Shown in pieces: positions 14,397 to 34,378 of a stretch of DNA of 64,000 nt; the first letter of the stretch is position 1, and each line of letters starts with the position of its first letter. The stretch lies in the IMG/VR virus record IMGVR_UViG_3300032074_000001; one strand, 5' to 3'. Below the pieces are notes generated by a model, which searched no databases, was not told the DNA's origin, and was given only the letters and a program-made list of their open reading frames with translations. The translations under genes and the position numbers were made by a program. This DNA is from a virus (lineage: Duplodnaviria > Heunggongvirae > Uroviricota > Caudoviricetes).

Positions 14397-14406
14397 AGGG
14401 GGAAAG

Positions 14407-18321: not shown

Positions 18322-20157
18322 ATGACGGTGCAGCGGCGCGACGAGCAGGACATCTCCTTCATTGATGATGTCCCCGAGTCTGGACAGGTCACCCGATTCA
18401 GCCCCATTGAGGAGCTGGGCGTCACCGGCATCAAGCGAGCCGGTGGCTACGTCGATGAGGAGTTCCTGCCTGCCCTGCGTGGTCGCAAGGCCATCCAGGT
18501 CTTCAAGGAGATGTCGCAGAACGACTCCATCGTGGGTGCTCTGCTGTTCGCCATCGACAAGCTGGTCCGAGAGGTGGAGTGGAAGGTCGTCCCGGCTGAG
18601 CAGACCGACGAGGGTCAGCAGGCTGCTGACTTCCTGGAGTCCTGCAAGGACGACATGTCCCACTCCTGGGACGACTTCATCGGTGAGGTGCTCTCCATGC
18701 TCACCTACGGGTGGAGCTGGCACGAGATCGTCTACAAGAAGCGCGTCGGACCCTGGGAGACGGACGGGGCCAAGAAGTCCAAGTACGACGACGGGAAGAT
18801 CGGCTGGCGCAAGATGCCGATCCGTTCCCAGGAGACCATGCTGCGCTGGGTCTTCGATGAGAACGGCGGGATCAAGGCGCTAGTCCAGCTGGCACCCCCG
18901 CACTACAAGACCGCAGTGATCCCCATCGAGAAGTCGCTGCTGTTCCGGACCAACTTGAACAAGGGCAACCCGGAGGGCTACAGCCTGCTCCGCAACGCCT
19001 ACCGCTCCTGGTACTTCAAGAAGCGCCTGGAAGAGTTCGAAGCCATCGGTGTGGAGCGCGACCTGGCCGGTATGCCGGTGGCTCGGGTGCCTGCGGACTA
19101 CCTGAACGCGCCCAAGGGCTCCAAGCAGGCCAAGACCGTCGAGGCGTTCCGCAGGATGGTCCGTGGCGTACGGCGGGATGAGAACGAGGGCCTGGTTCTC
19201 CCGACCCAGTACGACGCCGAGACCAAGCAGCCGCTCTTCGACTTTGAGCTGATGAGCAGCGGTGGCAGCCGTCAGTTCGACACCACCGGGATCATCCAGC
19301 GTTACGAGCAGCGCATCTTGATGAGCGTCCTCGCGGACTTCATCCTGGTCGGTCACGAGGGCGTGGGGTCCTACTCCATGCACACCGACAAGACCGGCAT
19401 CTTCCGCGCTGCCCTCAACGCGATCACCAAGGCCATCGCGGACACCCTGAACCGGCACGCGGTGCCCCGTCTGTTCGCGGTGAACGGCTGGAAGCTCAAC
19501 GAGCTGCCCAAGTTCGAACCCACCAACATCGACCCGCCCGACCTCCAGCAGCTCGCTGCCTTCATCACCTCCACGGCTGGTGCCGGTATGCAGTGGTTCC
19601 CGGACCCGGACCTGGAGAAGTTCCTGCGCGACATCGCTCGGCTCCCGGAGATGACCGACGAGGCGGTGGACTACAAGCGCGAGATGCTGATGCAGCAGCA
19701 GAACATGGAGTTCGCCCAGGGTCAGATGGAGATGCTCGGACTGCGGCAGAAGGCTCAGCTCACTGCCCAGGGCTACTCGCCCGAGCAGGCGCAGATGGCC
19801 TCGGAGCAGCCCACGGCGGACATGCAGGTCCAGCAGGCCACTGGTGAGCAGGATGCTGAGCTGGCTCGGCGCAAGCACCCGGTGGGTCAGCAGGACATGG
19901 CCATGCAAGAGCAGCAGATGCAGATGCAGAACCAGCCGCCTCCCGAGGACCCGAACGAGGGTCCGCGCCACGAGCGCGAGAAGGAGAAGCTGGCTCTCCA
20001 GGACAAGACCGAGGAGAATCGCTTCAAGCGTGACAAGGAGAAGATGACTCTCCAGGAGCGACTCGCAGACCAGCAGCACAAGCGCCAGTTGGAGCAGTTG
20101 AAGCAGCGGGGCAAGGATTCCAACCGGAAGCCCCCGCAGAGAAGGGGTCGGTCATGA
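18322..20157 (+). CDS. Portal protein
   Basis: 611 aa directly after terminase; Gln/Glu/Lys-rich C-terminal tail typical of portals. Confidence 0.75.
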   Translation: MTVQRRDEQDISFIDDVPESGQVTRFSPIEELGVTGIKRAGGYVDEEFLPALRGRKAIQVFKEMSQNDSIVGALLFAIDKLVREVEWKVVPAEQTDEGQQAADFLESCKDDMSHSWDDFIGEVLSMLTYGWSWHEIVYKKRVGPWETDGAKKSKYDDGKIGWRKMPIRSQETMLRWVFDENGGIKALVQLAPPHYKTAVIPIEKSLLFRTNLNKGNPEGYSLLRNAYRSWYFKKRLEEFEAIGVERDLAGMPVARVPADYLNAPKGSKQAKTVEAFRRMVRGVRRDENEGLVLPTQYDAETKQPLFDFELMSSGGSRQFDTTGIIQRYEQRILMSVLADFILVGHEGVGSYSMHTDKTGIFRAALNAITKAIADTLNRHAVPRLFAVNGWKLNELPKFEPTNIDPPDLQQLAAFITSTAGAGMQWFPDPDLEKFLRDIARLPEMTDEAVDYKREMLMQQQNMEFAQGQMEMLGLRQKAQLTAQGYSPEQAQMASEQPTADMQVQQATGEQDAELARRKHPVGQQDMAMQEQQMQMQNQPPPEDPNEGPRHEREKEKLALQDKTEENRFKRDKEKMTLQERLADQQHKRQLEQLKQRGKDSNRKPPQRRGRS

Positions 20158-20567
20158 TCAGTGCCTTCGGGGTGGACCACGACGGCGTGGTCAGCAAGCG
20201 GCAGCGCGACCCTGACCGCGAGAACAAGGCGTTCGGTAGCGCTGGGAAGACCGCCGTGGTGGTCGGTGGCACTGCGGCTGCGGTGATGGGTCGTCGGCGT
20301 GCCAACGCGGTTGGCTTCAGCGTGGGTGAGCGCATGGCCAACCGGGCTCGGTGGTCTGCTGATCGTGCCCAGACCATGCCTGGTGCTCTGCGCAGGGGTC
20401 GCCTGAAGTACGCAGGCAAGCTGGATGCTGCCGCCAAGAAGGGTCCGCTGAAGAACCAGGACGTGCGAGAGTGGACGGGCCGCACGGTGGTGGGCGGTAC
20501 CGCTGGCACCGTTGCCGGTAGTGCGGTCTACGGACGCAAGAAGCTGACCCCCAAGGAGAACCGCTGA
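20154..20567 (+). CDS. SAFGV-motif basic protein (family member 1)
   Basis: ATGA overlap with portal stop; MISAFGVDHDGVVSK...; Gly/Ala/Arg/Lys-rich, low-complexity. Confidence 0.6.
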   Translation: MISAFGVDHDGVVSKRQRDPDRENKAFGSAGKTAVVVGGTAAAVMGRRRANAVGFSVGERMANRARWSADRAQTMPGALRRGRLKYAGKLDAAAKKGPLKNQDVREWTGRTVVGGTAGTVAGSAVYGRKKLTPKENR

Positions 20568-23500
20568 TGACCAAGCGCATGGTCCGGCTGGCTGAGAAGA
20601 CGGTAGCGCCGGTCGTGACCGGTGCCGCTGGTGCGGTGATCGCCAACCAGTTCCCGCAGTCCAAGGGCACCCTGAAGCCGGTCCACATCCCGGAGAAGAA
20701 TGTCGGGACCAAGAAGAAGGGCAACCGGCATCAGAAGCGCAACCGGGGCAAGTTCGCCTCGGTGGTGAAGTCTGCCGACCCGCTGTTCAACCACGAGGCT
20801 GCCCAGCAGGTCTACGACCTGGTGATGAAGTGCGACACCAACGAAGAGGCGGCGATGTTCGCCTACTTCACCATGGCCGAGATCCTGGAGAACGACATCG
20901 AGGCCAACCAGCGCACGCTCCAGCGGCACCTGAACGACGTGGTTCACAAGCGCATCGAGATGGTCAAGAAGGCTCTGGTCACCTCGGTGGCCAAGACCGA
21001 TGACGCCGAGGCGGTGGAGTTCGCCCGTGCGGTGGTCGAGATCGAGAAGGCTTGGAAGAACCCGTACGACACTGGTGCGTACCACTTCGAAGAGCAGGAC
21101 TTCCGACGCGACCCCTCCACTGGTCGGTTCCAGATCAAGATCGCGGCTACCGAGAACAAGAAGCCGCTGAACGACAAGCAGGCCACGAACCTCGGGATCG
21201 ATGTCGGTAGCAAGCGCTACACGAACCTGTCCCCGGCTGAGCAGGCTCAGTACCAGCACGAGTACATGCAGGTCGCCAACTTCCTCAACGTGGTCTCGCA
21301 GTCTGGCAACCTCGGTGACCACGACGTGATCCTCCAGGTGAAGAACAAGGCCAACGGTCAGCAGCACTGGAAGCCGGTGGTCGGCAAGCCGAAGCCCGAC
21401 AAGGACTGGGACCCGAAGACCGAGCGCATCGTTGGTGCGGTGGCTCGACCCACCGGGCTCACCCTGGCCGGTGCTTCCTACGGTCTGGTCGGTGGTCTCT
21501 CTGGTCAGACCATGGGCACCATCAACCGAACCGATAAGAACTTCGGCTCGTTCTCCGAAGGCTGGGCTGACGCCAATGGTGACGCCTACAACCCGAACCA
21601 GCGTCTCTACAACCGGGTCAAGACCGGTGCCGACTTCGTGTCCACGGTGGCTCCCGACAACGCCTACAAGGTGCAGGTCGCTGCTCGCCTTGCCTCTGCG
21701 GTGGGTGAGCACGGTCCGCAGGCCGAGAAGGTGTTCGGTCCCGCTGCTCGCAAGACGGCGTACCGATACCGGGGTGTGGAGAAGAAGCCCGACGCTCAGG
21801 TGCTCCGGGACTACCAGATCACCCTGGGGCGTGCTCAGCAGCCCGCCATCCCGGAGGCTGACCGCAAGGCGCTGAACACCCGGATGAAGCGCGCCGAGAC
21901 CGCTGCGCGCAACAAGAAGGCCAGCGACACCAAGACTCCGGTGGAGGCTGTCCGACTCACGGCTGACGAGATCAACGCTGCTCGCAGGCCGATCCTGGAC
22001 AAGTTCCGTCGTGACCACCCGGCCACTCCGGACCCGGAGGCTCGCCAGGCTGCCATCAGCGTGCTGCGCGATCACCTGGTGGACCAGGAGCGTGCTCCCA
22101 GCCGGGACCGCTACAAGCTCCAGCTGGAGTCCGGTGGCACTCCTCCGTCCGAGGGCTTCCTGCTCGACAAGGAAGGCAACATCGTCACCCAGGCAGTGGG
22201 CTACGGCGATGACCACTACCTGCCGTTCAACCTGCGGCACCTGGCCAAGCTTCGGGGTGGCGAGTACATCCGGTCCCGCTCGGTGGGTGGTCCGACCAGC
22301 GAGGACATCTACACCGGTCTGATGGCCGGGGCCAAGCGCGTCACGGTGGTCTCCCGGTCTGGCACGTTCACCGTGGACTTCAAGGACGACTTCACTGGCA
22401 AGCGTCGGTACAACGACAAGGCCAAGCGGATGGTGGGCCGCTACGAGAAGCTGCTCGACACCGTGCAGTCCGAGACGCTGGAGCGCCCGGTCAAGCTGAG
22501 CCAGGACATCCGCTCTCGCTTCGCACGCGAGGTTGCGGAGGAGTACCCTGGCCTGTCCCTGCGGGACCGTCGCACCATGCTGAAGCAGCGCGAGGAGGAG
22601 TACCGAGGCAACCTCAGTGGTGAGCGCGAGGACTTCCAGCTGTACGCAGCCGAGCGTGCCGACTCACTGACCGACGAGCGCGAGAAGCGTGCGTTCATGG
22701 GTCAGATGATGAACGACTGGGACGCGCACAACGAGTACCTGTACCGGCTCAACGGTCAGGGCTACGCGGACGCGCTGAAGGCTCTCCAGGAGCAGTTCCC
22801 GTACTACATCCAGTCCGAGTGGCACGCGACTCGGGAGTTGGAGCGCAAGGCTGAGCCCGAGATCGACCGGGGCTACGTGGAGCCCGGTCGGAACCGGCCC
22901 ACGGCTGCCAACGCTGGCTGGCACGGTACGTCGGTCAACCGGGGCACCGGGTTCATCTCGGCCTCGCAGACCAACTACCAGCGCGGCAAGTACGGGGCTG
23001 CGTCCGACAGGCCGATCAGTCAGCGGGCTGAGGCTGCTCCGCGTCCTGCCGAGCCGACCTCGGAGGCGCGTGCCACCGAGAAGGGCAAGCTCACTCCGGT
23101 GGAGGAGCCCAAGGTCTCGGAGGAGAAGGTCCAGGAGATCGAGAGCAAGGCCCAGGACACCTTTGCGAACGCCGCCACTGGGCTGGTCAAGGCTCTCCAG
23201 GAGCACGTCAACATCCCGCCCGAGGTGATCCGTACCTCCGATGGCAGGCCGGGTACCTTCCCGATCCTGGGGGAGACCGACGAGACCAAGATCCGGGAGT
23301 TCTTCAAGGACAAGTCCAACGTCCGGCGTGCCGATGAGGTCTTCGCCAACATGCAGATGACCGGGGCGGACACGCCCAAGGCGGTCCTGGATGCGCAGGA
23401 GGCGTACAAGCGGGCCGCTGGTCAGTTGGGCCGGGTGAGCTACGACCCAAAACTCGCGTTCACCAGGAAGGGAGCCCCCTTCCTGTTCCCGCAAGCGCCC

Positions 23501-24262
23501 TACCTTCCCGGAGCAGATCCAACTCTGGCTGAGGCTGAGGCGCAGCGGATCGCTGGACGAACCTTCCCGGTGAGCGCATCTGGCACGTCCCTGGCCGACA
23601 TGACCGACGAAGACCTCAACACTGAGATCGACGTGCTGATGCGGGTCAAGGATGGGCTGGACCGCATCCGAGACATCAAGGACCCCGCCGAGAAGCTGAA
23701 GGCTCTGCGTGAGTTGGGCGTGGACACCGACATCAAGGGTGTCACCCAGATCGTGGAGGGTGAGCGGATCGGCGGGCACGCCAAGGATGTGCAGCGGATG
23801 CGTGCGCTGAACCTCAACCGAGGCACTCGCTCGGCTGGCGCGCTCACCATGCCTGCGCATGTCCAGCGCCTTCCTGCCCGTACCGAGCAGGAGACGCTCA
23901 CCATCAAGCAGCAGGCGGCTCGGCACGTCCAGAACTTGGAGGAGGCTGCGGCACGTCTGGAGGAGTCTGCTGACCCGCAGCGTCAGCGTGCCGGTGGTGC
24001 TCTGCGTCTGGCGGCTTCACAGTGGAAGAAGAAGTCCCAGCAGGCCGAGATCGACCGGGGTGACTTCGACTCGCTCTACGACTCCCACCGACCCCAGCAC
24101 GACCTGGCGGTCAAGATCCTGATGAACCGGGCCGAGGAGAGCGACATCGAGGACTTCCTGCGGGAGTATGACGCAGACGCCTACAACCCGCAGTCCAGCA
24201 TCCACGGGCACGATGACGACGACTACGGTCCGCCTCTCCGTCAGGAGCGCCCTAAGCGATGA
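20567..24262 (+). CDS. Large head-associated (internal/ejection?) protein, 1231 aa
   Basis: ATGA overlaps with flanking genes; between portal and MuF-like gene; charged, helix-rich. Confidence 0.65.
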   Translation: MTKRMVRLAEKTVAPVVTGAAGAVIANQFPQSKGTLKPVHIPEKNVGTKKKGNRHQKRNRGKFASVVKSADPLFNHEAAQQVYDLVMKCDTNEEAAMFAYFTMAEILENDIEANQRTLQRHLNDVVHKRIEMVKKALVTSVAKTDDAEAVEFARAVVEIEKAWKNPYDTGAYHFEEQDFRRDPSTGRFQIKIAATENKKPLNDKQATNLGIDVGSKRYTNLSPAEQAQYQHEYMQVANFLNVVSQSGNLGDHDVILQVKNKANGQQHWKPVVGKPKPDKDWDPKTERIVGAVARPTGLTLAGASYGLVGGLSGQTMGTINRTDKNFGSFSEGWADANGDAYNPNQRLYNRVKTGADFVSTVAPDNAYKVQVAARLASAVGEHGPQAEKVFGPAARKTAYRYRGVEKKPDAQVLRDYQITLGRAQQPAIPEADRKALNTRMKRAETAARNKKASDTKTPVEAVRLTADEINAARRPILDKFRRDHPATPDPEARQAAISVLRDHLVDQERAPSRDRYKLQLESGGTPPSEGFLLDKEGNIVTQAVGYGDDHYLPFNLRHLAKLRGGEYIRSRSVGGPTSEDIYTGLMAGAKRVTVVSRSGTFTVDFKDDFTGKRRYNDKAKRMVGRYEKLLDTVQSETLERPVKLSQDIRSRFAREVAEEYPGLSLRDRRTMLKQREEEYRGNLSGEREDFQLYAAERADSLTDEREKRAFMGQMMNDWDAHNEYLYRLNGQGYADALKALQEQFPYYIQSEWHATRELERKAEPEIDRGYVEPGRNRPTAANAGWHGTSVNRGTGFISASQTNYQRGKYGAASDRPISQRAEAAPRPAEPTSEARATEKGKLTPVEEPKVSEEKVQEIESKAQDTFANAATGLVKALQEHVNIPPEVIRTSDGRPGTFPILGETDETKIREFFKDKSNVRRADEVFANMQMTGADTPKAVLDAQEAYKRAAGQLGRVSYDPKLAFTRKGAPFLFPQAPYLPGADPTLAEAEAQRIAGRTFPVSASGTSLADMTDEDLNTEIDVLMRVKDGLDRIRDIKDPAEKLKALRELGVDTDIKGVTQIVEGERIGGHAKDVQRMRALNLNRGTRSAGALTMPAHVQRLPARTEQETLTIKQQAARHVQNLEEAAARLEESADPQRQRAGGALRLAASQWKKKSQQAEIDRGDFDSLYDSHRPQHDLAVKILMNRAEESDIEDFLREYDADAYNPQSSIHGHDDDDYGPPLRQERPKR

Positions 24263-26454
24263 CCCAGCTTCAGAACGAGGCCAGCCCGCAGATCGCGCTG
24301 TTCCACGGTCTGCAACTAGCCCCTGTTGAAGTAGCTGCGCTCACTGCCGCCAACGCCTCCGCTGATCCAGAGGAGTCCTGGCGGGAGGCGCTGCTTGCCT
24401 TCCGGGTGTTCACCATCCGGCGAGCGCGGGAGGAACTGCTCAACCAGACGTTGGTCAACGACACCATCATCCGGCGCACCCTGGATGCCATCTGGACGCA
24501 GTTCTCTCCCGCGTTCCGCAAGGCCACCGGGCCGATGATCGCGGAGGCGTACCTGCGTGCCTTCCGGGCGGTGGAGGAGGGCAACGTCCCGGTGCAGCTG
24601 ATCTACTCCCTGGCCGACGAGCACGCTGATCGGGTCGGGAAGTACTTCAACGAGACCTCCACCGATGCGCTGATCCAGGGCTTCAACACCTACGTGAACC
24701 GCCAGGTGCCGCAGCGGGTTGCCATCGAGCGGGTGATCGACGCCTACGGGCTCACTCCTCGGCAGATGTCGGGCTTCACCTCGGCTGCTGCGTTGAGTCC
24801 GATGAAGATGGAGACGGCTGCCCCGCAGACCCTGAAGGCCAAGGTCAAGCAGTACATCGCCAAGTCCATCGCGGATCGACTCGGTGTCTTCAAGCGCCAG
24901 GAGGCACACAACCTCGACCAGCAGGCCCAGCAGGTTGCCTGGCTGTGGCTGGTGCAGAACCACCGACTGCCCGAGACTGCGCAGAAGATGTGGCTCACCG
25001 CGAACGACGAGAAGGTCTGCAAGCAGTGCGGGCCGATGCACCGCAAGAAGATCGCGGTCACCGACAAGTTCCGGCTGCCCAACGGCAACGAGCTGTTCAC
25101 TCCCGGTGCTCACGTCAACTGCCGCTGTGAGGTCCGGCTCCAGGTCAACCCCTTCCAGGTGGTCCAGAAGGACGCCCTGTCTGGTCATGACCTGCTCGAC
25201 TTCAACCGCGAGCACCCGCGTGGCAACGGTGGCCGGTTCGCACCCAAGCGTCAGGGTGAGCACCCGCAGCGTCCGGAGGTCCGGGAGGCTGTCGCTCCCA
25301 GTCCTGCGATGGAGGAGATGCTCCGCGATGTCCAGCGTCTCCGTGAGGAGCGTCTGGCCGAGCCGGTGATCGAGGAGGCTCCTGCCAAGCCCACGTTGCA
25401 GCTCGGCGCTGCCAAGCCGCAGTTGAACATCGGGGCAGCCAAGCCCAGTCTTCGGGTGCCCGAGCCGACTCCGGAGCCGGTGGTTGCGGAGCCGGTGACC
25501 AAGCCGAGCCTGTCCATCACCCCGCCTGCTCCCGCACCGGAGCCCGCCAAGCCCAGCCTGGTGATCGGTACGCCCAAGCCCTCCCTGGAGCTGCACAAGC
25601 CGACCCTGGAGATCGACTACGCGGGTCTGGTCAGCGACCAGGCTGAGCGTCAGTCCGCGCAGCAGGTCCATGATCTGGAGGAGGTCATCTACCGACCCAC
25701 TCGCCGGATCACCGACCGCTACGGCAACGCGGCCACTGGCTACTTCGTCGCGGATGCCGGTCACTTGAACGCCCACAACGACACGGCGTTCTTGTCCGAC
25801 AACGACCGCATCGAACTGCACTCTCAGTCCCGACTGACTCAGGTGGTCGCTCGGGAGCTGGCTCACGAGTTGGACGAGTCGATGATCGACGCTCGTGACT
25901 CCATCGTCTCGGACTACGCCACCTCGTACGACCCGAACTCTGACGAGGTGGTGGTGCAGCTCAACGATCAGTTCATGGTGGGTGAAGACGACGAAGATCA
26001 GCTTGATGTCTACGCCGAGATCTCCATCTCCGATGTAGACGGACTGATGGAGGAGGCGCTGTGGAACAAGTCCGAGTACGGCACTCGCGCCCAGGTCGCT
26101 GAGGCTGGGGGCTACCGACTGAGCTGGTACGACGAAGACGGTGTTCTGGTCCGCGAGGACGATGTGTCCCCGGTCGAGGTGATGCAGTACCTCGGCCTGG
26201 ACCCGGATGCGTACCGACCGGTGGTCTACAAGATCGAGGAAGGCTACGACAGCGCCTACCTGGAAGACTCCGAGATGCACATCTGGAAGGCACCGGGTAC
26301 CTACACGGCAGTGAACCACCAGTACCGGATCGCGCATGTGGAGGACCGGGACATCCCGTATCTGGAGGTCACCCTGCGGCCTCAGGTCAGTGACCAGACC
26401 GTGCTCCAGCCCACCACTTACCTGACCCGGCGCGAAGACTTCCCGCCCGCCTGA
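24259..26454 (+). CDS. MuF-like (SPP1 gp7 family) minor head protein with long C-terminal extension
   Basis: ...KFRLPNGNELFTPGAHVNCRCEVRLQVNP matches the Phage_Mu_F H-x-NCRC signature; Pro-rich repeats then about 300-aa C-terminal domain. Confidence 0.7.
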   Translation: MTQLQNEASPQIALFHGLQLAPVEVAALTAANASADPEESWREALLAFRVFTIRRAREELLNQTLVNDTIIRRTLDAIWTQFSPAFRKATGPMIAEAYLRAFRAVEEGNVPVQLIYSLADEHADRVGKYFNETSTDALIQGFNTYVNRQVPQRVAIERVIDAYGLTPRQMSGFTSAAALSPMKMETAAPQTLKAKVKQYIAKSIADRLGVFKRQEAHNLDQQAQQVAWLWLVQNHRLPETAQKMWLTANDEKVCKQCGPMHRKKIAVTDKFRLPNGNELFTPGAHVNCRCEVRLQVNPFQVVQKDALSGHDLLDFNREHPRGNGGRFAPKRQGEHPQRPEVREAVAPSPAMEEMLRDVQRLREERLAEPVIEEAPAKPTLQLGAAKPQLNIGAAKPSLRVPEPTPEPVVAEPVTKPSLSITPPAPAPEPAKPSLVIGTPKPSLELHKPTLEIDYAGLVSDQAERQSAQQVHDLEEVIYRPTRRITDRYGNAATGYFVADAGHLNAHNDTAFLSDNDRIELHSQSRLTQVVARELAHELDESMIDARDSIVSDYATSYDPNSDEVVVQLNDQFMVGEDDEDQLDVYAEISISDVDGLMEEALWNKSEYGTRAQVAEAGGYRLSWYDEDGVLVREDDVSPVEVMQYLGLDPDAYRPVVYKIEEGYDSAYLEDSEMHIWKAPGTYTAVNHQYRIAHVEDRDIPYLEVTLRPQVSDQTVLQPTTYLTRREDFPPA

Positions 26455-26480
26455 CAAGACACAGTGAGGACCATAGAGAC

Positions 26481-28260: not shown

Positions 28261-29262
28261 GTGAAGATCCACAACGGTCAGATGAGTGCTGGTGACGCCA
28301 AGAAGATCGTGAGTCCTGGATACCGTCCGGGGAACACCCGATCCATCAAGGTGATGGCTCGCAACCTTGGCCACATGGAGTCCAGCCCCACCTCGGTGAT
28401 CCGGTACAAGGACGGACGAGCCATCCCGTTCGATGGCAACCACCGCGCTACCGCCCGCATCGTTCGCGGGGACAAGAACATCCCGGTCAAGGTGATCGAG
28501 GGTGGGGAGCGTCCGGCTGTCAGCGTGGCTCGCAATGCCTTCCACGTCGGCCAGCAGCGGGTTCACCGTGCCCGGATGGAGCGCGGTGACTTCACTCCGC
28601 AGGCGAACGCGAAGAAGACCGCCTACACCGGCAAGCACGCTGGCGAGGGCAAGGTCTACTCCTCCATCGCCAACGGCTCTCCCGCTCGCTCTGGTCGCAG
28701 GGTTGCACTGGAGTCCACTAGGTTTGCGGCAGGCCCAGGCAAGGTGGCGCTGCACACCAAGCAGGCTGCGACTGTCGGTGCCGGTCTGGCTCTACTTGGC
28801 GGTGCTCACCACCTCAGTCAGAATCGCAAGGTGGAGAAGCGCGACCGCAACCTGTCCCAGACTCAGATCGACCGGAAGAAGAAGGCCGGTGCCAATCTGA
28901 CCCGGACCACTTCCGCTCTGGGTCTCGGCTCGGTGGCGGCGTTGGGTGTGGCCAGTGCTGCACCCAAGCTGGCGCGGTCGGGCAAGCTGGCTCGGGTCAT
29001 TCCCAAGGCCACCGAGGCGAACGCCAATCTGATCCGTCAGCGGACCAAGAGCCACCTGATCACTGTGGGTGTGGTCAGCTCTGGAATCGGTGGCTACAAC
29101 GGGTTCAACAACGCTTCTTGGCAGAGTGCCGAGGCTAGGCAGCGCAAGATCAAGAGTCAGGTAGCCAAGAGCGCTTCAGGCTCTGTTGGGGAGGGCTTCT
29201 ACGGAGAGTCCTTCGACAGAACTGAAGTGAACGTGACTGACTTGCACTCACCTACAGACTAA
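28261..29262 (+). CDS. Basic protein with ParB-like nuclease N-domain motif (start uncertain)
   Basis: SVIRYKDGRAIPFDGNHRATARIV resembles ParB/Srx DGxHR motif; rest Ala/Gly/Lys/Arg-rich low complexity. Confidence 0.5.
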   Translation: MKIHNGQMSAGDAKKIVSPGYRPGNTRSIKVMARNLGHMESSPTSVIRYKDGRAIPFDGNHRATARIVRGDKNIPVKVIEGGERPAVSVARNAFHVGQQRVHRARMERGDFTPQANAKKTAYTGKHAGEGKVYSSIANGSPARSGRRVALESTRFAAGPGKVALHTKQAATVGAGLALLGGAHHLSQNRKVEKRDRNLSQTQIDRKKKAGANLTRTTSALGLGSVAALGVASAAPKLARSGKLARVIPKATEANANLIRQRTKSHLITVGVVSSGIGGYNGFNNASWQSAEARQRKIKSQVAKSASGSVGEGFYGESFDRTEVNVTDLHSPTD

Positions 29263-29273
29263 GAGTGAGGTTG

Positions 29274-30083
29274 ATGGACATGCCAAGACCGGTACGCAAG
29301 CTTTCCAACATGGAGATCGATGAGATCTCCCTGGTGGACAAGGGTGCAAACCAGCACGCAATGATCACCATCGCAAAGAGGGCTCCCGAGGAGGACCAGA
29401 TGCCCGAGCTTTACAACGAGGATGGCGAACTCCTCGATGAGAACGCCCTGACGAACGGCCAGATCGTCTTTGACGACAGTGGCAACGCCTACCAGTTCAC
29501 CCTGGACGACCAGGCCGAGGAGGTCGAGGAGGAGGAGCGCGAGCCGGTTGCCGTTGGCAAGTCGGCGTTCTTCACCCAGCAGACCGTCTCCAAGTCCGGC
29601 AAGTCGTTCTCCGAGCAGGTCATGGAGGAGCTGTCGAAGGCTTACTCCGACTCTGACCGGGACGCGGTGATCGCGAAGGCCCTGGGCCGGGTCGAGGAGC
29701 TGGAGCGTGGCTACACGGAGGCTGCGGAGATCGCGAAGTCGGAGCGCGACCTGCGCCTGACCCGTGAGTACATCTCCAAGGCTGCCGACTACAACGTCCC
29801 GGTGGACCCGACCGAGCTTGGTCCGGTTCTCTACCGGATGGCCGAGTCGATGAGCTACGAGGACTGCTCGGTGATCGCCAAGTGCCTGGAGGCTTCCGGC
29901 GCTGCGCTGTTCAACGAGGTCGGCTACATCGGTGGCGGCGACAACGACGACATCATGTCGCGGGTCGAGGCCCAGGCCGTGGAGATCGGCAAGTCCGCTT
30001 CGCCCGAGAACGTGGTCACCGTGTTCGACCAGAGCCCGGATGCATACAACGAGTACCTCGCGTCACAGCGGGGACGGTACTGA
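29274..30083 (+). CDS. Scaffolding protein
   Basis: Acidic, helical, immediately upstream of decoration-like and capsid genes; contains KSAFFTQQTVSKSGKSF. Confidence 0.6.
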   Translation: MDMPRPVRKLSNMEIDEISLVDKGANQHAMITIAKRAPEEDQMPELYNEDGELLDENALTNGQIVFDDSGNAYQFTLDDQAEEVEEEEREPVAVGKSAFFTQQTVSKSGKSFSEQVMEELSKAYSDSDRDAVIAKALGRVEELERGYTEAAEIAKSERDLRLTREYISKAADYNVPVDPTELGPVLYRMAESMSYEDCSVIAKCLEASGAALFNEVGYIGGGDNDDIMSRVEAQAVEIGKSASPENVVTVFDQSPDAYNEYLASQRGRY

Positions 30084-30103
30084 GAGAAAGGTAGGGAACT
30101 GCT

Positions 30104-30514
30104 GTGGCGTACGAAGAGTCTCTTCGGTCTATCACGCTCACGTCGGACGCAACTCTTGCGGTCCGCACGGGCGTGAGCAACGCTCCGGGCTCCCCCGTAG
30201 ACAACGCGGGTAACCAGTACCGCTTCGTCACGGTCAAGGGGGAGCACCTCGCAGGACGCGCTGACGACAACGATGTTGTCGTGGGTGTGCTCCAGAACAA
30301 GCCCCAGGTGCCCAACGAGGCCGCGACTGTGGGCATCCGTGGCGTCAGCAAGGTCCGGGTCTCCGGTGCCGTTGCTGCTGGCACTGGCGTTGTCAGCGGC
30401 GCTGACGGTCGAGGAGCTGCCGCTGGTGCGGGCAACGCTGGCCTCGGCATCGCGCTCACGTCTGCTACGGAGGCCGATGAACTCATCAGCGTCCTCCTTC
30501 GGCTCGGGTCTTGA
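30104..30514 (+). CDS. Small head protein (decoration/cement-like)
   Basis: 136 aa Gly/Ala/Val-rich between scaffold and major capsid. Confidence 0.5.
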   Translation: MAYEESLRSITLTSDATLAVRTGVSNAPGSPVDNAGNQYRFVTVKGEHLAGRADDNDVVVGVLQNKPQVPNEAATVGIRGVSKVRVSGAVAAGTGVVSGADGRGAAAGAGNAGLGIALTSATEADELISVLLRLGS

Positions 30515-30528
30515 TAGGAGGATGACCG

Positions 30529-31518
30529 ATGCCTAACCCCACTCAGTCCGATCTCCACATCAACGTCCCGCTGACGAATGTGTCGATTGGCTACATGATC
30601 GACCGCCGCGACTTCATCGCGGACAAGGTGTTCCCGCGTGTGCCGGTGAACAAGCAGTCCGACCTGTACTGGAAGTACCGCAAGTCGGATTGGCGGCGTA
30701 CCGACGCTCAGCGTCGTGCGCCCGGTACCGAGACGGTCGGCTCCGGTTGGAAGACCGACACCGGGCAGTACTACGCCCACGTCTACGGTGTTCACAAGGA
30801 CATCGATGACCAGGTGCGGGCCAACGCGGACTCCTTCTGGAGTCTCGACAAGGACGCGACGCTGTTCGTGACCAACCAGCTTCTGCTGCGTCGGGACCTG
30901 GACTGGAACAACGCCTACTTCCGTCCGGGCGTCTGGGGCACCGACCTCGCTGGTGGAGCTGACTTCACCCCGTGGTCGGACGCTGCTTCGGACCCCATCG
31001 TGCAGTTCGCGAACCTCCAGACCGAGTTCATCAAGCAGTCGGGTCGCAAGGCCAACACGCTGGTGCTCGGCGCGGACACCATCACCCAGCTGAAGAACCA
31101 CCCGGACATCATCGACCGGATCAAGTACACCCAGCGTGGCGTGGTGACCACCGACCTGCTCGCGAGCCTCTTCGACGTGGACAAGATCCTGGTGAGCTAC
31201 GCGACCCAGGAGACCACCGGCCAGGAGTTCGCGGACGGTCAGACCCAGGACGACAACGCCGAGTACGACTTCATGTCGAACTCGCGTGGTGCTCTGCTCT
31301 GCTACACCCCGAGCGCCCCGTCCCTGATGACCCCGGCTGCGGGCTACATCTTCACCTGGAACGGCTACCTGGCTGGCAACCAGTACGGCATCCGGATGAA
31401 GAACTTCCGCATGGAGCACATCGCTTCTGACCGGATCGAGGGCGAGATGACCTACGACATGAAGGTCATCGCCCCCGAGATGGGTGTCTACCTGGCCGAC
31501 GCTGTGGCTGCTGTCTGA
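30529..31518 (+). CDS. Major capsid protein
   Basis: AGGAGGATGACCG-ATG strong RBS; 329 aa; followed by hairpin terminator. Confidence 0.8.
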   Translation: MPNPTQSDLHINVPLTNVSIGYMIDRRDFIADKVFPRVPVNKQSDLYWKYRKSDWRRTDAQRRAPGTETVGSGWKTDTGQYYAHVYGVHKDIDDQVRANADSFWSLDKDATLFVTNQLLLRRDLDWNNAYFRPGVWGTDLAGGADFTPWSDAASDPIVQFANLQTEFIKQSGRKANTLVLGADTITQLKNHPDIIDRIKYTQRGVVTTDLLASLFDVDKILVSYATQETTGQEFADGQTQDDNAEYDFMSNSRGALLCYTPSAPSLMTPAAGYIFTWNGYLAGNQYGIRMKNFRMEHIASDRIEGEMTYDMKVIAPEMGVYLADAVAAV

Positions 31519-31531
31519 GCCTGATCAACCT

Positions 31532-31565
31532 GAGAGGGGCTGGGGTGTTAGCCCTGGCCCCTCTC
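31532..31565 (+). terminator. Hairpin terminator after major capsid gene
   Basis: GAGAGGGGC-loop-GCCCCTCTC then TTCATCT. Confidence 0.55.
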
Positions 31566-31583
31566 TTCATCTGAGGAGATGAC

Positions 31584-31841
31584 ATGGAGTCGGCGTTCGG
31601 TGTTGAGCATGGCGAGATCAGCAAGGGCCTGTTTGGCTCCGGTGAGAACGTCGGACGGCATGTTGCCGGTGCTCGCAAGCTGGGGTTCTCGCTGAAGAGC
31701 GTGAGCCTGAAGAGCACTGGTGGGGCACGCAAGGGCGGTGCTCACCGTGCTGGTACTCGTGCGGCTGGCCGTACCTCGTTCAGCCCATTCCAGACTGGTG
31801 GCGTTCGTGCCTACCAGGGTCGTCACTTGGCGGGGAGCTGA
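31584..31841 (+). CDS. SAFGV-motif basic protein (family member 3)
   Basis: GAGGAG RBS, MESAFGVEHGEISKGLFGSG...; Gly/Arg/Ala-rich. Confidence 0.6.
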   Translation: MESAFGVEHGEISKGLFGSGENVGRHVAGARKLGFSLKSVSLKSTGGARKGGAHRAGTRAAGRTSFSPFQTGGVRAYQGRHLAGS

Positions 31842-31842
31842 C

Positions 31843-32034
31843 ATGGAGTCCGCGTTCGGTGTTGACCACGGCGAGGTCAGCAAGCGCATCCTGGCTGGCT
31901 TCAAGATGGGCGAGAAGGCTGGCTTTGTTGGACGCAAGGCTTCGAAGCTCACTGGCAAGCTGCGTGAGAGCAAGGCAAATGCCGCACAGACCAACTTCAA
32001 TCGGGCTGCACGGCGAAACACTGTAGGCCGATGA
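31843..32034 (+). CDS. SAFGV-motif basic protein (family member 4)
   Basis: GGGGAG RBS, MESAFGVDHGEVSKRILAGFKMGEKAGF... Confidence 0.6.
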   Translation: MESAFGVDHGEVSKRILAGFKMGEKAGFVGRKASKLTGKLRESKANAAQTNFNRAARRNTVGR

Positions 32035-32043
32035 GGAGTGAAC

Positions 32044-32553
32044 ATGCCTAGCGCACTGATCAAGAACGACAACGTGAGCTTCATCTGTGCCCGGAACTTC
32101 ACCTGGAACGGGCAGGACTACAAGATGGGCGACGACTTCAACCAGGACGTTGCTCTGGGTCGGATCGAGCTGCTCGTTCGTACCCGGCGAGTGATCCCGG
32201 TCGTGGACTCCACCGACGTGAAGCCGCGCCTCTTCCACCGCGAGGTCCGTCTTCGCGAGCATGTGGAGCAGAAGCTGGGTGTTCCCCGCAGCATCCGCAC
32301 TCCGCTGGACCAGACCGAGGCGGACAACGAGACCTCTGAGGTCGAGGACACCCCAGGCTCCGAGGAGCTTGGCTTCGACCCGGCAAAGCACAGCACTGAA
32401 GAGGTGCTGGCGTTCGTGGAGGAGAACCCCGACGAGGTGCTCTCCGTCTACGAGCTGGAGGAGCAGGGGAAGAATCGCAAGGGGCTGAAGTCCAAGCTGG
32501 ACGACATCCTCAACAAGCAGACCGAGACTGAAGAGGAGCACGACAATGACTGA
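32044..32553 (+). CDS. Hypothetical protein with acidic C-terminus
   Basis: GAGGAG RBS then ATG 32044 (MPSALIKNDNVSF...). Confidence 0.5.
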   Translation: MPSALIKNDNVSFICARNFTWNGQDYKMGDDFNQDVALGRIELLVRTRRVIPVVDSTDVKPRLFHREVRLREHVEQKLGVPRSIRTPLDQTEADNETSEVEDTPGSEELGFDPAKHSTEEVLAFVEENPDEVLSVYELEEQGKNRKGLKSKLDDILNKQTETEEEHDND

Positions 32554-32860
32554 GCACCAGCACGACGAGCACACCATCGCTCTGGAGTCCGAGGCCGAGC
32601 GCGAGAACACCGGCACCGACCGGGAGCTTCGTGACGAGAACACCGCCACCGACCCGTTGGAGGGCAACCAGCTGGCCGACGAGGACCAGGTGTTCGTGGA
32701 CGGCCCCAGCAAGCTCGCTCACGAGGACACGGTTCCGGAGACGGTCCGTCAGTCCGAGGAGAACGAGACCCGCGACGGCTCCGACATCGAGGGCGGCAAG
32801 ACCGCTCGCGAGCTGCACGACGAGCGCGTGGACGAGGCCAAGAAGGCGAACGAGGGCTGA
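32546..32860 (+). CDS. Acidic hypothetical protein
   Basis: 104 aa Glu/Asp-rich. Confidence 0.5.
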   Translation: MTEHQHDEHTIALESEAERENTGTDRELRDENTATDPLEGNQLADEDQVFVDGPSKLAHEDTVPETVRQSEENETRDGSDIEGGKTARELHDERVDEAKKANEG

Positions 32861-32861
32861 C

Positions 32862-33233
32862 ATGCCCAGTGCGTTCGGAGTCGAGCATGGAGACGAGTTC
32901 TCCAAGTTCGCTATGCCCAAGATCGGTGGTGGCACCTTCAAGCCAGTCACCGGCCTGGGGGCCAAGATGGGCTCCGGGGCCTCTTCGCTCGGACGCAAGG
33001 CTTCGGCCTCTGGCGCTCAGCGGATGAAGGGTGTCGCCGGGGCCGGGTCGCATCGCGCTGCCGGTGGGTTCAGTGCTGGTCTGGGTCGGACCCAGGTCGG
33101 CGCTGGCAGTGGTCTCCGACGCGCTGGCGCTGCGATGTCTGCTCACCCTGGCGCTACGGGTGGTGCCGTCCTTGGCGCTGGTGCCGTTGGTGGCACCAGC
33201 TTCATGGCCGGTCGCAACAACCGTCGCTACTGA
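32862..33233 (+). CDS. SAFGV-motif basic protein (family member 5)
   Basis: MPSAFGVEHGDEFSKFAMPKIGGGTF...; Gly/Ala-rich. Confidence 0.6.
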   Translation: MPSAFGVEHGDEFSKFAMPKIGGGTFKPVTGLGAKMGSGASSLGRKASASGAQRMKGVAGAGSHRAAGGFSAGLGRTQVGAGSGLRRAGAAMSAHPGATGGAVLGAGAVGGTSFMAGRNNRRY

Positions 33234-33246
33234 GACAGGAGGAACC

Positions 33247-33720
33247 GTGACCGCGACCTACGTTGACCCATCCGAGTCCGACAAGGATGCGGTGCGGTTC
33301 CTCCTGGGCGACACCAACCCTGATCGTGCGCTGGTCTCCGATGGCGAGATCGAGTTCATGCTCACCAGATGGATGCCCGTCTACAACACCATCGAGGGTG
33401 TGGCCTCCACCGTGGCTGACACCATCGCCGCTCGGTTCGCCCGTGAGGCGAACTTCTCCGCTGACGGGGTGTCGGTCGGTCTGGCCAGCCTCGCCCAGCA
33501 GTTCCGGGATCTTGCTGCGAACCTGCGAACGCAGCACAAGAACCTGCTCGTCGGGGGACTTCCTGATGTGGGCGGCATCACCCCCGGCGAGCAGACTTCC
33601 CCTGACATCGCACCCTTCGACTTCGGCACCGGGATGCACGACAACCTGGAGGCGGGTCGCCAGGAGTACGGCAACCGTCCCTACCCGGAGTACATCGCTG
33701 AGTACCAGCCGGGAGCGTAG
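33247..33720 (+). CDS. Head-tail connector/adaptor-like protein
   Basis: GGAGGA RBS then GTG 33247; position after capsid module. Confidence 0.5.
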   Translation: MTATYVDPSESDKDAVRFLLGDTNPDRALVSDGEIEFMLTRWMPVYNTIEGVASTVADTIAARFAREANFSADGVSVGLASLAQQFRDLAANLRTQHKNLLVGGLPDVGGITPGEQTSPDIAPFDFGTGMHDNLEAGRQEYGNRPYPEYIAEYQPGA

Positions 33721-33722
33721 TC

Positions 33723-34145
33723 ATGGCCTATGACGCCCTGGGGATCTCCCAGAACGCTCTGAACTACGTCCGGGATCGCGCTGAGTCGATCATGGGCTAC
33801 ACCTGCCGCATCGAGCGGGTGACCAAGCCTGGCTTCGACAACACCACTCACCAGGTGATCCCCGGCAAGCGCACCGCGCTGTACGAGGGCAAGTGCCGGG
33901 TCTGGGAGATCAGCTCCGGTGCTCCCATCATGGTGGCCGAGGATCAGGTCACCATGCAGACCACTCAGATCTCGTTGCCCTGGGACATCTCTCCGGTACC
34001 CGAGCGCGATGACGAGGTGGTGATCATCGGCGCTGATGACGATGACTACATGATCGGGAAGCGGTTCGTCATCGACTCATCAGCCAAGGCTGGCGAGATG
34101 CGAGCCACCCGCAGGTTCCAAGTGAGGGGATACCAGAAGCCATGA
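33723..34145 (+). CDS. Head-tail joining (head closure-like) protein
   Basis: 140 aa; neck-module position. Confidence 0.5.
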   Translation: MAYDALGISQNALNYVRDRAESIMGYTCRIERVTKPGFDNTTHQVIPGKRTALYEGKCRVWEISSGAPIMVAEDQVTMQTTQISLPWDISPVPERDDEVVIIGADDDDYMIGKRFVIDSSAKAGEMRATRRFQVRGYQKP

Positions 34146-34378
34146 GCATGTCTGCGTTCGGTGTGGACCACGGTGAGATCAGCAAGGGCGTGACCCGCCA
34201 GATGTTCTCGGGCAACAACCTGGCCAACAAGGGCACCCTTATCAAGTTGAAGAACGGTGGCCCCTGGGCGACCAAGAAGGGCACCAAGGTCCCCGACTAC
34301 CAGGCTCGACGGGGTGTGCCGACCCAGGGCTACGTGAAGCACATCCTCGACAACCACAAGGCGTCCACGGTCCTATGA
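34142..34378 (+). CDS. SAFGV-motif basic protein (family member 6)
   Basis: ATGA overlap; MSMSAFGVDHGEISKGVTRQMF... Confidence 0.6.
   Translation: MSMSAFGVDHGEISKGVTRQMFSGNNLANKGTLIKLKNGGPWATKKGTKVPDYQARRGVPTQGYVKHILDNHKASTVL

Follow-up and report, generated by a model that had tools for sequence, protein, structure and literature searches.

The DNA analysed here, referred to below as the window, is a single stretch of 64,000 nucleotides from an uncultured, soil-type phage. It encodes a complete tailed phage, with a terminase, a portal, a tape measure protein, a tail fibre and an endolysin. Interspersed among the genes of its head module lie six small genes whose products all open with nearly the same peptide of about 14 residues, here called the tag (Table 1). 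In distant cultured relatives, the gene ahead of the capsid gene bears the annotation "head fiber", and the lysis genes are located elsewhere in the window, away from the tagged genes. The rest of the window holds no host clues, and no tRNAs were found in it.

Table 1. Tagged genes and neighbouring head genes of the window
Feature	Position	Strand	Remarks
Portal, Mu-like, with long Gln/Glu/Lys-rich C-terminal extension	18322..20157	+	Site of fusion to an M1-type tag and tail in relative L066
M1, tagged basic protein, 137 aa, pI 11.4	20154..20567	+	Tag MISAFGVDHDGVVSK, nt 20154-20198; start overlaps portal stop (ATGA)
Prohead protease, XkdF / Peptidase_S78_2, 324 aa	26481..27455	+	Domain aa 195-320; 190-aa N-terminal extension
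M2, tagged basic protein, 244 aa	27455..28189	+	Tag MSTSAFGVDHGDEFSK, nt 27455-27502
g333, untagged basic Gly/Ala-rich protein, 333 aa	28261..29262	+	M2 paralog; domain shared with M2
Scaffold protein	29265..30083	+	PHROG matches to protease-scaffold families and conserved position
Major capsid protein	30529..31518	+	Untagged; no delta domain; candidate receptor
M3, tagged basic protein, 85 aa	31584..31841	+	Tag MESAFGVEHGEISK, nt 31584-31625; first slot after capsid gene
M4, tagged basic protein, 63 aa	31843..32034	+	Tag MESAFGVDHGEVSK, nt 31843-31884; start 1 nt past M3 stop
M5, tagged basic protein, 123 aa, 42% Gly+Ala	32862..33233	+	Tag MPSAFGVEHGDEFSK, nt 32862-32906; start 1 nt past stop of acidic 104-aa protein
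M6, tagged basic protein, 78 aa	34142..34378	+	Tag MSMSAFGVDHGEISK, nt 34142-34186; start overlaps stop of DUF6093 connector-type gene

Six carriers of a common opening peptide

When all six reading frames of the window are scanned for the pattern SAFG[VIL][DE]H, exactly six matches are found, all on the plus strand, all one to three residues past an ATG, and all (6/6) at the start of an open reading frame. The six starts and N-termini of the original prediction are confirmed. In the case of M4, the mechanical open reading frame reaches upstream to 31720, but the ATG at 31843 is favoured as the start by its Shine-Dalgarno sequence and by the M-x-S register. When a generic detector of shared termini is used to rank the terminal 5-mers of the window, SAFGV comes first, with six open reading frames, and the 5-mer in second place is only this DNA read on the opposite strand.

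The carriers are, as had been described, small, basic and Gly/Ala-rich (pI 10.2-11.9; Gly+Ala 19-42%), and their tags differ by synonymous codons: Ser is encoded by TCN as well as by AGT, and any two of the tags agree at 19-32 of the 36 nt of the core. As a statement of homology, the term "paralogous family" is not supported, since the tails, once stripped of the tag, display no significant similarity except for the domain that M2 shares with g333. Behind the tag, M2 has first a Gly/Ala segment, then a central alpha/beta domain that is paralogous to g333, and last a basic tail; its tag region is disordered in the predicted model, which says nothing about binding. A ParB/sulfiredoxin-like identity of the M2/g333 domain was considered: the sequence gives it no support, and a low-confidence model supports it weakly.

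From upstream stop to start, the distances for M1 to M6 are -4, -1, +65, +1, +1 and -4 nt, and every start has a Shine-Dalgarno-like sequence. That each carrier directly follows a virion gene holds for the context of the Mu-like portal, a MuF-like protein, the XkdF protease and the capsid, but not for M4, which follows M3, or for M5, which follows an acidic protein of no known type.

The peptide in related viruses

Among related viral contigs the tag, written in full as M-x-S-A-F-G-[VI]-[DE]-H-G-x-Phi-[SA]-K, stands at the N-terminus of 132 distinct proteins. Ser at position -1 is found in 132/132 of these and Met at position -3 in 116/132, although neither residue was part of the search pattern. 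The codon entropy within the tag is 1.7-2.0 bits at third positions versus 0 at first and second positions, and Ser is drawn from AGY codons in 80 cases and from TCN codons in 55. From the freedom of the third positions, together with the use of both Ser codon families, it follows that selection acts on the peptide, and it does so throughout the clade.

A further sample is blind to the tag, with loci chosen by similarity of the major capsid protein (MCP), which also defines the clade. In this sample, 34 of the 35 loci with an MCP at least 74% identical have the tag, at about 3.8 copies per locus, while a sister clade has Trp variants of it; the number of copies reaches seven in related loci. 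All carriers have a pI above 9.7, and their tails consist to 50% of Gly, Ala, Lys and Arg. They occupy recurrent, hypervariable slots, flanked by conserved head genes that diverge more slowly: identities to the closest relatives are 44-78% for carriers versus 57-92% for their neighbours. An M1 homolog at 62% identity follows the portal in relative L031.

The original prediction saw the peptide as an N-terminal propeptide; the tag is indeed N-terminal in all six carriers of the window, but this position is too narrow a description for the relatives. There, the tag is also found at the C-terminus of basic proteins of 175-600 residues and at both ends of one 827-residue fusion protein. Relatives have M2 joined to g333 homologs, in proteins of 452 and 827 residues, and the g333 homologs are tagged either at the N-terminus, through this fusion, or at the C-terminus. 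In L066, finally, the M1 equivalent is fused to the C-terminus of the portal, so that the tag is internal, between portal domain and basic tail; apart from this fusion, no tag is found at the termini of portal, 1231-aa or MuF proteins. The tag is modular in that it occurs at N-termini, at C-termini and at internal junctions.

The proposal that the motif belongs to no described family stands. Neither the tagged proteins nor their larger tagged relatives match Pfam, PHROG, NCBIfam or PADLOC families, and the peptide strings have no match in the literature. A tblastn search with the consensus against 50,697 phage records gives no tag in cultured phages but only chance matches, in Xanthomonas tape-measure genes, and a 42-column profile returns only 22 small metagenomic hypothetical proteins. 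With megablast, cultured relatives of the head module are reduced to a 104-bp capsid match, and the generic detector finds no shared terminal peptide in ValentiniPuff, Kovu, Ottawa and Laroye. By these searches, no member of the clade is found among cultured phages. As a negative control, the same DNA pattern was sought in 596 Gb of bacterial genomes: among the matches listed, at least 120, all are single and out of frame, and Ser(-1) is present in 3 of the 120 listed. A prophage, a host or a mimicked host protein was rejected, since the bacterial-genome matches listed are of this chance kind only.

Protease, scaffold and a candidate cut site

In 124 of the 132 N-terminal carriers the tag is followed by Phi-[SA]-K. 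Of 27 cases in which the tag is C-terminal or internal, 17 have Phi-[SAGE]-K between cargo and tag, at a distance of no more than 10 residues, versus a background of 5.5%. Phi-[SA]-K accounts for 12 of the 70 Lys residues of protease, scaffold and g333 taken together, versus 15/341 in the background (p=5e-4), and no such enrichment is seen in capsid, tail, portal and MuF proteins. Phi-[SA]-K is a candidate cut site, at which the tag may be separated from the cargo. The counts behind the enrichment are small, however, and instead of a cut site Phi-S-K could mark a preference for helix or strand, or form the second of the two strands in a beta-hairpin.

The protease itself is assigned by Pfam PF14550 over residues 195-320 (66.8 bits versus a cutoff of 24), and this family is present on 120/120 of those listed among its 509 homologs. 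Its N-terminal extension holds a conserved peptide similar to the tag, EVASLLFGDGSDEIVSK (aa 8-24, nt 26502-26552), of the form F-G...E-Phi-S-K, and further Phi-S-K sites are found at residues 124-126, 186-188 and 196-198, with GE[IF][SA]K just before the catalytic domain. In an alignment of 108 sequences, K24 is conserved in 104, K126 in 93 and K198 in all 108. The AF2 model predicts a helical N-terminal extension with two linkers of pLDDT<50, each containing one V-S-K, and a catalytic domain that starts at I-S-K198; a Foldseek comparison of the model with the PDB gives no significant match. The extension peptide had been taken for a degenerate copy of the tag, but as a claim of homology this is not supported; the peptide is conserved separately and is present even in relatives that have no tag. 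Homology between the extension and the tagged carriers was likewise set aside as unproven (BLASTP E=6.4; no significant HMM match).

For the scaffold, in which a tag-like sequence had been noted, GK-SAF[FG] is indeed conserved but TVSK is not. Within the protein, VGK-SAFF (aa 97-103, nt 29553-29573) is conserved and EELSKA (aa 121-126) is invariant; Phi-[SA]-K occurs seven times in total. The SAF element is clade-restricted and dispensable: there are tag-positive sister genomes without GK-SAF, and because of these it is rejected as an essential partner of the tag.

Cleavage after Lys has a precedent in HK97, whose prohead protease gp4 (Peptidase S78) makes its cut at K103/S104, where the substrate is unstructured (PMC10275583). 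The protease here is of the same broad family, and the Lys-Ser cut resembles what is proposed for the disordered linkers, a cut at Phi-[SA]-K with a small residue after it. There are also differences, in that XkdF belongs to a distinct Pfam family, Peptidase_S78_2, and in that the HK97 substrate is the delta domain of the capsid protein, which is missing here, the putative substrates being cargo, scaffold and the protease itself.

What the peptide may do

With moderate confidence, we take S-A-[F/W]-G-[V/I]-[D/E]-H-(G)-x(0-6)-Phi-[S/A]-K to be a position-independent peptide for loading into the procapsid, joined to a site for the maturation protease. The original idea of a capsid-targeting or protease-recognition signal is, in this form, the best fit to the clade-wide conservation of the peptide, the hypervariable cargo in fixed slots, the portal fusion and the enrichment of Phi-[SA]-K; its restriction to N-termini, the paralogy and the copy in the protease are the details to be revised. 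In such a scheme, SAFGV[DE]H would dock its carrier on a conserved component of the procapsid interior, with scaffold, inner face of the capsid, portal and protease as candidates, and the docked carrier would become enclosed in the capsid. The XkdF-type protease would then cut the adjacent Phi-[S/A]-K, as gp4 does at its Lys-Ser site, and release a polycationic, largely disordered cargo, which might remain with the DNA and perhaps be ejected together with it.

A tag of this kind would work like the capsid-targeting sequences (CTS) of T4 and P1, to neither of which it is homologous. As in the T4 proteins IPI, IPII, IPIII and Alt, a short terminal peptide is the sole feature common to diverse, fast-evolving small proteins; both phages encode a scaffold or core as well as a prohead protease, and the T4 cargo is partly basic and DNA-associated. 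The two systems have no sequence relationship, as is also seen from the lack of PHROG, Pfam or NCBIfam matches to the six proteins, and they differ in that the T4 CTS is N-terminal only, while the tag is C-terminal and internal as well. The present phage is, furthermore, no T4-like myovirus but of siphovirus type, its portal being Mu-like and its protease of the XkdF family, and all of its cargo is basic. The T4 protease cuts after Glu, while the candidate site here is after Lys. Apart from the conserved CTS, the T4 internal proteins are diverse (PMC3012670). In P1, the N-terminal 30 residues of DarB suffice to direct the protein to the capsid, and the host receives the packaged cargo (PMC9024508). 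This signal is described for one protein rather than as a shared motif, its incorporation is stepwise and Dar-dependent, and it has no sequence similarity to the tag.

For an encapsulin the targeting peptide can be at either terminus, which matches the position independence of the tag. In encapsulins, a short terminal peptide on otherwise unrelated proteins docks inside a shell of HK97 fold (PMC10960027). The encapsulin is, however, a cellular nanocompartment that lacks portal, DNA, protease and scaffold and takes up enzymes by way of other motifs, in contrast to the complete tailed phage of the window.

The strongest competitor, although we judge it unlikely, is that the peptide is a recognition propeptide for the protease and nothing else, an exosite or cleavage signal by which polycationic proteins are activated, detoxified or degraded, any incorporation into the capsid being due to charge or DNA binding. 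It draws support from the enrichment of Phi-[SA]-K in protease and scaffold, the expected substrates, from the similar conserved peptide of the protease and the GE[IF][SA]K ahead of its catalytic domain, and from the portal fusion, which retains the tag where targeting would be redundant. Seven invariant residues, SAFGV[DE]H, nevertheless exceed what a cleavage site usually needs, and many C-terminal copies stop 0-3 residues past the His without a downstream Phi-S-K, so that a cut there would remove almost nothing. The protease, moreover, works in the interior of the procapsid, and from this follows that its substrates must still be recruited to that place. The cleavage consensus of phiKZ and SPN3US is located after Glu. 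In these phages the prohead protease recognises one short consensus in many head-internal or ejection proteins and processes them there (PMC10052503, PMC5694885). That consensus stands in long, non-conserved propeptides rather than in an invariant tag of seven residues, and both protease family and virion architecture are different.

It is considerably less probable that the peptide is there to be recognised by a host factor such as a chaperone, a host protease or a pathway for secretion or membrane insertion, with the Gly/Ala-rich basic proteins acting at the membrane. The precedent is the staphylococcal phage 80alpha, where capsid and scaffold, though not homologous, share an N-terminal motif that mimics the ribosomal protein L27 and is cut by the host enzyme Prp (PMC5744158). 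There, the motif is carried by capsid and scaffold themselves and cut at F|A, whereas in the present phage both of these have untagged N-termini and the bacterial-genome matches listed contain no host protein with such an N-terminus that could have been mimicked. A moderately hydrophobic Gly/Ala 17-mer is found in 51 of the 132 carriers, but hydropathy of transmembrane grade in only 8 of them; the hints of a glycine zipper or OsmB stay below cutoff both for M2 (21.4 versus 98 bits, OsmB) and for M1 (8.5 versus 24.2 bits, Rick_17kDa_Anti). The remote position of the lysis genes also speaks against a membrane fate, with which the portal fusion fits poorly.

Very improbable, too, is an anchor that attaches accessory proteins by strand addition to the capsid exterior or the head-tail junction, with the basic tails presented to anionic cell surfaces. 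Decoration binding can be mediated by short terminal peptides, and the interleaving of carriers with capsid and connector genes, as well as the "head fiber" annotation in distant relatives, would agree with such a role. Portal C-termini, however, generally point into the capsid, and it is to the C-terminal extension of the portal that the tag is fused in L066. The related motifs of protease and scaffold belong to interior components, at least six different proteins would have to compete for a single outside site, and disordered tails of the present composition are atypical of decoration proteins.

That the shared start is a translational coupling or initiation signal, with peptide conservation as a by-product, has almost no probability left: starts that overlap or abut an upstream stop (except for the 65-nt gap of M3) and carry Shine-Dalgarno sequences would suit it, but a DNA repeat or regulatory element is effectively refuted by the nearly random third codon positions, with Ser from AGY as well as TCN, and by copies at C-termini and internal sites, where no initiation occurs.

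The reading as a loading tag can be taken further, to a picture that we put forward only tentatively and consider rather doubtful as a whole. In this plug-and-play system, a docking peptide of seven residues at either terminus, with a Lys-specific protease site before or after it, would allow the slots of the head module to accept any gene and have its product loaded. The packaged proteins would be rapidly diversifying polycationic effectors, partly membrane-active or DNA-binding, ejected with the genome, and the origin of the tag would lie in mimicry of the peptide by which the protease itself is recruited to the procapsid. On this picture, no such system would have been known before from a siphovirus with an HK97/Mu-type head, nor any phage capsid tag shown to be independent of position.

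Capsid-targeting signals have been shown experimentally in few phages, T4 and P1 among them, and they are the basis of technologies for protein packaging and delivery. If the tag loads proteins as suggested, from either terminus and in a head of HK97 type, the principle would be extended to a very different and environmentally widespread lineage (509 protease homologs; contigs clustering at about 75-83 kb). The question would then be why a genome of this clade has four to eight different polycationic proteins. The tag would also provide a sequence rule by which "dark" open reading frames in the head modules of metagenomes could be annotated as packaged proteins, and a small, simple handle with which phage capsids or capsid-like particles could be loaded with foreign proteins.

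The tag and its carriers

A six-frame scan of the window for SAFG[VIL][DE]H, the core of the tag, gives exactly six matches, all on the + strand and one to three residues past an ATG, and thereby recovers exactly the six ORFs of the original prediction (M1 to M6; see the table). In a generic search for 5-mers common to the ORF termini of the window, SAFGV ranks first. The runner-up, STPNA, is rejected as a second motif, being an antisense reading of tag DNA: '...SPxSTPNA[DL]...' recurs in four spurious - strand ORFs (about 31540-31620, 31800-31900, 32820-32930 and 34100-34200) that translate its reverse complement and might be mistaken for carriers of another shared motif. A Shine-Dalgarno-like sequence precedes each of the six starts; those of M1, M2, M4, M5 and M6 lie at -4, -1, +1, +1 and -4 nt from the upstream stop, and M3 starts 65 nt past the capsid gene.

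M1 to M6 are 63 to 244 aa long, with pI 10.2-11.9 and 19-42% Gly plus Ala. Since they lack significant mutual similarity when the tag is stripped, the earlier term 'paralogous family' is too strong; judged by their sequences, they appear to be different proteins with one tag in common. M2 and g333, an untagged 333-aa basic protein, have the only common domain outside the tag (E = 0.003), and for this domain a low-confidence model weakly suggests a ParB/sulfiredoxin-like fold.

A degenerate DNA pattern for AFGV[DE]HG[DE] matches 90 IMG/VR viral contig stretches, many of them two or three times, and a relaxed protein scan over these loci gives 218 matches, up to seven per locus. The consensus of 132 distinct N-terminal carriers, i.e., tagged proteins, is M-x-S-A-F-G-[V118/I14]-[D78/E53]-H-G(113)-[E/D]-[I/V]-S-K-[A/G]; Ser(-1) is present in all 132 and Met(-3) in 116, and the search imposed neither. 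When the same pattern is applied as a negative control to 596 Gb of bacterial and archaeal genomes, only single matches occur among those listed, Ser precedes the motif in 3 of the 120 listed, and all inspected ones lie deep within out-of-frame, Arg/Gly/Pro-rich open frames.

The tag is position-independent: it occurs at the N-terminus, at the C-terminus, internally and at both ends of one protein. The class at ORF C-termini has 28 matches, about 20 of which have the full SAFG core and lie on large basic Gly/Ala/Lys-rich proteins, as in ...SWQPYAKRDxxSAFG[VI]DH(x0-12)*. The tag stands at both termini of an 827-aa protein in which homologs of M2, g333 and a long basic protein are fused. In the related locus L066, portal and M1, which are separate genes in the window, form one ORF, with an internal tag between portal domain and basic tail (...KKVKKSDTT-SAFGVDHGDISK-G...).

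Each of the 132 carriers is basic (pI > 9.7), 50% of their tail residues are Gly/Ala/Lys/Arg, the net charge of the tails is +0.11 per residue, and domain libraries recognise none of the carriers. They occupy recurrent slots between conserved genes, i.e., after portal, in the protease-scaffold gap, after capsid, after the 171-aa protein and on both sides of DUF6093, and in these slots they vary freely in number, length and sequence. Identity to the closest relatives (capsid 90-92% identical) is 44-78% for carriers versus 57-92% for core genes, and M4 and M6 have a full-length counterpart in none of the related loci compared.

The head module and its relatives

The window is a tailed-phage genome fragment with a GC content of 62-65%, and its structural module occupies 16.8-43 kb.

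Tagged proteins and neighbouring features of the window
Feature	Position	Strand	Remark
Endonuclease/exonuclease/phosphatase-family protein, small membrane proteins, Amidase_2 endolysin; 1361-aa tail fibre	1121-2758, 8679-16338	+	5' of terminase; fibre with C-terminal S74 chaperone domain
Large terminase	16787-18289	+	
Mu-like portal	18322-20157	+	PF06074, 1.2e-35
M1	start 20154	+	tagged
1231-aa unknown protein		+	structural module, after portal/M1
MuF-domain protein	24259-26454	+	
XkdF/Peptidase_S78_2 protease	26481-27455	+	
M2	start 27455	+	tagged
g333	28261-29262	+	between protease and scaffold genes
Scaffold	29265-30083	+	
Major capsid protein	30529-31518	+	
M3	start 31584	+	tagged
M4	start 31843	+	tagged
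171-aa and 104-aa acidic proteins	32038-32860	+	amid basic carriers
M5	start 32862	+	tagged
DUF6093 connector-type protein		+	structural module
M6	start 34142	+	tagged
HK97-gp10-like protein		+	structural module
Major tail protein, chaperones		+	
Tape measure protein, 2046 aa	36814-42954	+	
SPFH/Band-7 protein	48482-49396	-	

The portal has a Gln/Glu/Lys-rich C-terminal extension of about 190 residues, with the P23-45 portal barrel family as a sub-hit, and its last residues form a conserved proline-lysine tail (window, KPPQRRGRS; relatives, KKPPPKKGK); in the window and in the homologs compared (L007, L024, L043, L063, L072, L077) an M1-type tagged gene lies directly downstream. Two very large proteins are encoded within 20567-26454 (+), between portal/M1 and protease. 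The 1231-aa one is without family match and has a basic, Gly/Ala-rich N-terminal segment, and the sole recognisable part of the other, of 731 aa, is its MuF domain (aa 200-292). Several homologs in relatives have an additional N-terminal 'MPYKSDAQRRFMHARHPEIA...KKKKVSK' extension, and both proteins are likely to be additional head-internal proteins. Of the two acidic proteins, the 171-aa one, conserved in about 37 related loci, is acidic in its C-terminal half; the sister-clade equivalents have pI 4.2-5.3, and the two may act as counter-ions or as chaperones of the polycations. For the connector-type gene (33031-33720, +), the mechanical ORF from 33031 gives a 200-nt overlap with M5, and its true start is likely the GTG at 33247, with a GGAGGA Shine-Dalgarno, just past the M5 stop. 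By eye, the tape measure C-terminus has putative M23-type peptidase (…GNTGSPPTSHLHFE…) and lytic transglycosylase (…AYGMFQFL…) motifs, as do many phages of Gram-positive or actinobacterial hosts. Neither the bacterial and archaeal genome scan, among the matches listed, nor the rest of the window gives a clue to the host. There are no tRNAs in the window, and the gene order suggests a permuted complete or near-complete genome. The window proteins are found identical on a 77,180-bp metagenomic contig, and the protease has 509 homologs, whose long contigs cluster at about 75-83 kb.

Because the first set of loci had been ascertained through the tag itself, relatives were re-sampled via the capsid protein. 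The strict tag is then found in 34 of 35 loci with at least 74% capsid identity and 3.5 kb or more of sequence downstream, with about 3.8 copies per locus, and in 2 of 20 loci of the sister group (61-67%). A broadened pattern finds Trp variants in the sister group (MISYWGIDHGDEISK, MQSVWGVDHGPDEVAK, SPWGVDHG..., SAWGVEHG...) and C-terminal S[AP]FG[VI]DHG[YHW]* copies, and gives no tag in the most divergent capsid-sampled loci. A megablast search of cultured phages with the head module returns a 104-bp capsid match only, and tblastn of the consensus tag against 50,697 records chance matches only. No common terminal peptide occurs in Microbacterium phage ValentiniPuff or in Arthrobacter phages, the best cultured relatives by capsid (about 40-44% identity).

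Candidate cleavage sites in carriers, protease and scaffold

Past the His of the tag, at a variable distance of 0-7 residues, comes a second sub-motif, Phi-[S/E/A]-K; it is present in 124 of the 132 N-terminal carriers, and the next residue is usually Ala or Gly. Where the tag is C-terminal or internal, 17 of 27 carriers have Phi-[SAGE]-K in the 10 residues before the core, versus a background of 5.5% per 10-residue window, and the remainder have VRK, VKK or LTK instead. From this follows that Phi-x-K, on the cargo side of the core in both arrangements, separates cargo from core in either direction.

In the window proteome, 12 of the 70 Lys in protease, scaffold and g333 belong to Phi-[SA]-K, versus 15 of 341 in 36 background genes (p = 5e-4); capsid, connector and tail proteins show no such excess, nor do the portal, 1231-aa and MuF proteins. 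An alignment of 108 proteases has three conserved sites: the N-terminal peptide E-V-A-x-L-L-[FY]-G-x-G-x-[DE]-E-L-[IV]-[SA]-K (K24 in 104), [VI]-x-K126 (in 93), and E-G-E-[IF]-[SA]-K198, where the catalytic domain begins (in all 108). An AF2 model of the protease (mean pLDDT 73.7) has a helical N-extension (pLDDT 72-86), with the N-terminal peptide as a helix-turn-helix, and each linker with pLDDT < 50 (118-137 and 158-190) contains V-S-K; Foldseek of the model finds nothing. In the scaffold, EELSKA is invariant, and VGK-SAF[FG] occurs in the clade with at least 74% capsid identity. The HK97 prohead protease cuts at K103/S104 within an unstructured segment (PMC10275583), a precedent for Lys-specific cleavage in flexible linkers. 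Sequence, model and analogy are thus, as indirect evidence, consistent with Phi-[SA]-K as a maturation cleavage site; alternatively, it and SAFGV could form a small hairpin in which it is the second strand.

The cargo tag and the protease peptide have F-G...[DE]...E-Phi-S-K in common. This resemblance, noted originally as a 'degenerate copy', stands, and a homology is not supported: BLASTP of the protease N-extension against its look-alike carrier gives E = 6.4, and an HMM built from over 100 N-extensions has no significant match among the 132 carriers. The protease peptide is kept even in tag-free relatives and is therefore the older element. Trp-variant tags, S[VYPA]WG[VI][DE]HG, occur in the sister clade (L266, L267, L270, L272, L276, L278) only with protease LLYGDGAWE...[SA]K, and Phe tags pair with LLFG[GD]G..E, L258 being the exception. 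This possible co-variation hints at a shared receptor and is phylogenetically confounded, in that a single evolutionary event could account for it. Tag-positive sister genomes lack the scaffold SAF element, which can therefore not be essential.

Proposed procapsid loading and its alternatives

On balance, sequence and analogy make it probable that the tag acts as a module for procapsid loading and is joined to a maturation-protease site. The SAFGV[DE]H core would dock onto a conserved interior procapsid component, and the maturation protease would cut at Phi-[SA]-K, so that polycationic cargo is freed within the head. This reading is favoured because the tag is the sole common feature of a hypervariable set within the head module, because either terminus serves, as it would for a short docking peptide, because one natural fusion joins tag to portal C-terminal extension, and because the linked Phi-x-K is enriched in the two proteins that a maturation protease must destroy. 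The targeting or protease-recognition propeptide first proposed is thus retained as the best explanation, and its strictly N-terminal character is given up in view of the C-terminal and internal copies.

That the tag serves protease recognition only is unlikely. A handle for a host factor or membrane is very unlikely. A moderately hydrophobic Gly/Ala-rich 17-mer is present in 51 of the 132 carriers, and only 8 reach transmembrane-grade hydropathy. An exterior anchor is also very unlikely. A translational element can practically be dismissed: over 135 distinct DNA copies of the core, codon positions 1 and 2 are invariant, position 3 has an entropy of 1.7-2.0 bits, and the tag Ser is encoded by AGY in 80 and TCN in 55, so that free third positions and both Ser codon families exclude a DNA or RNA element and bear out the proposed conservation at the protein level.

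The logic of a single shared feature is that described for the T4 internal proteins (PMC3012670), and capsid targeting by such a signal has been shown experimentally for P1 DarB (PMC9024508). The likeness to the T4 and P1 targeting sequences is functional, and encapsulin targeting peptides share the position independence; by sequence the tag belongs to none of these families, and what sets it apart is the type of protease and of virion, the predicted cut specificity and its bidirectionality. As had been suspected, no family matches the motif and no literature matches its peptide strings; as far as such searches reach, the tag, which has no cultured representative, is undescribed.

Among larger tagged relatives, HExxH occurs as HEAQH, HELAH and HEHQH in L024, L047 and L037 (259, 254 and 264 aa), which have no Pfam match; these sequences suggest metallopeptidase-like cargo. 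The 254-aa carrier has a second, internal tag-like copy, KSAFGVLHK. As to its role in the phage, the cargo may serve DNA charge neutralisation, act as co-ejected effectors or have membrane activity.
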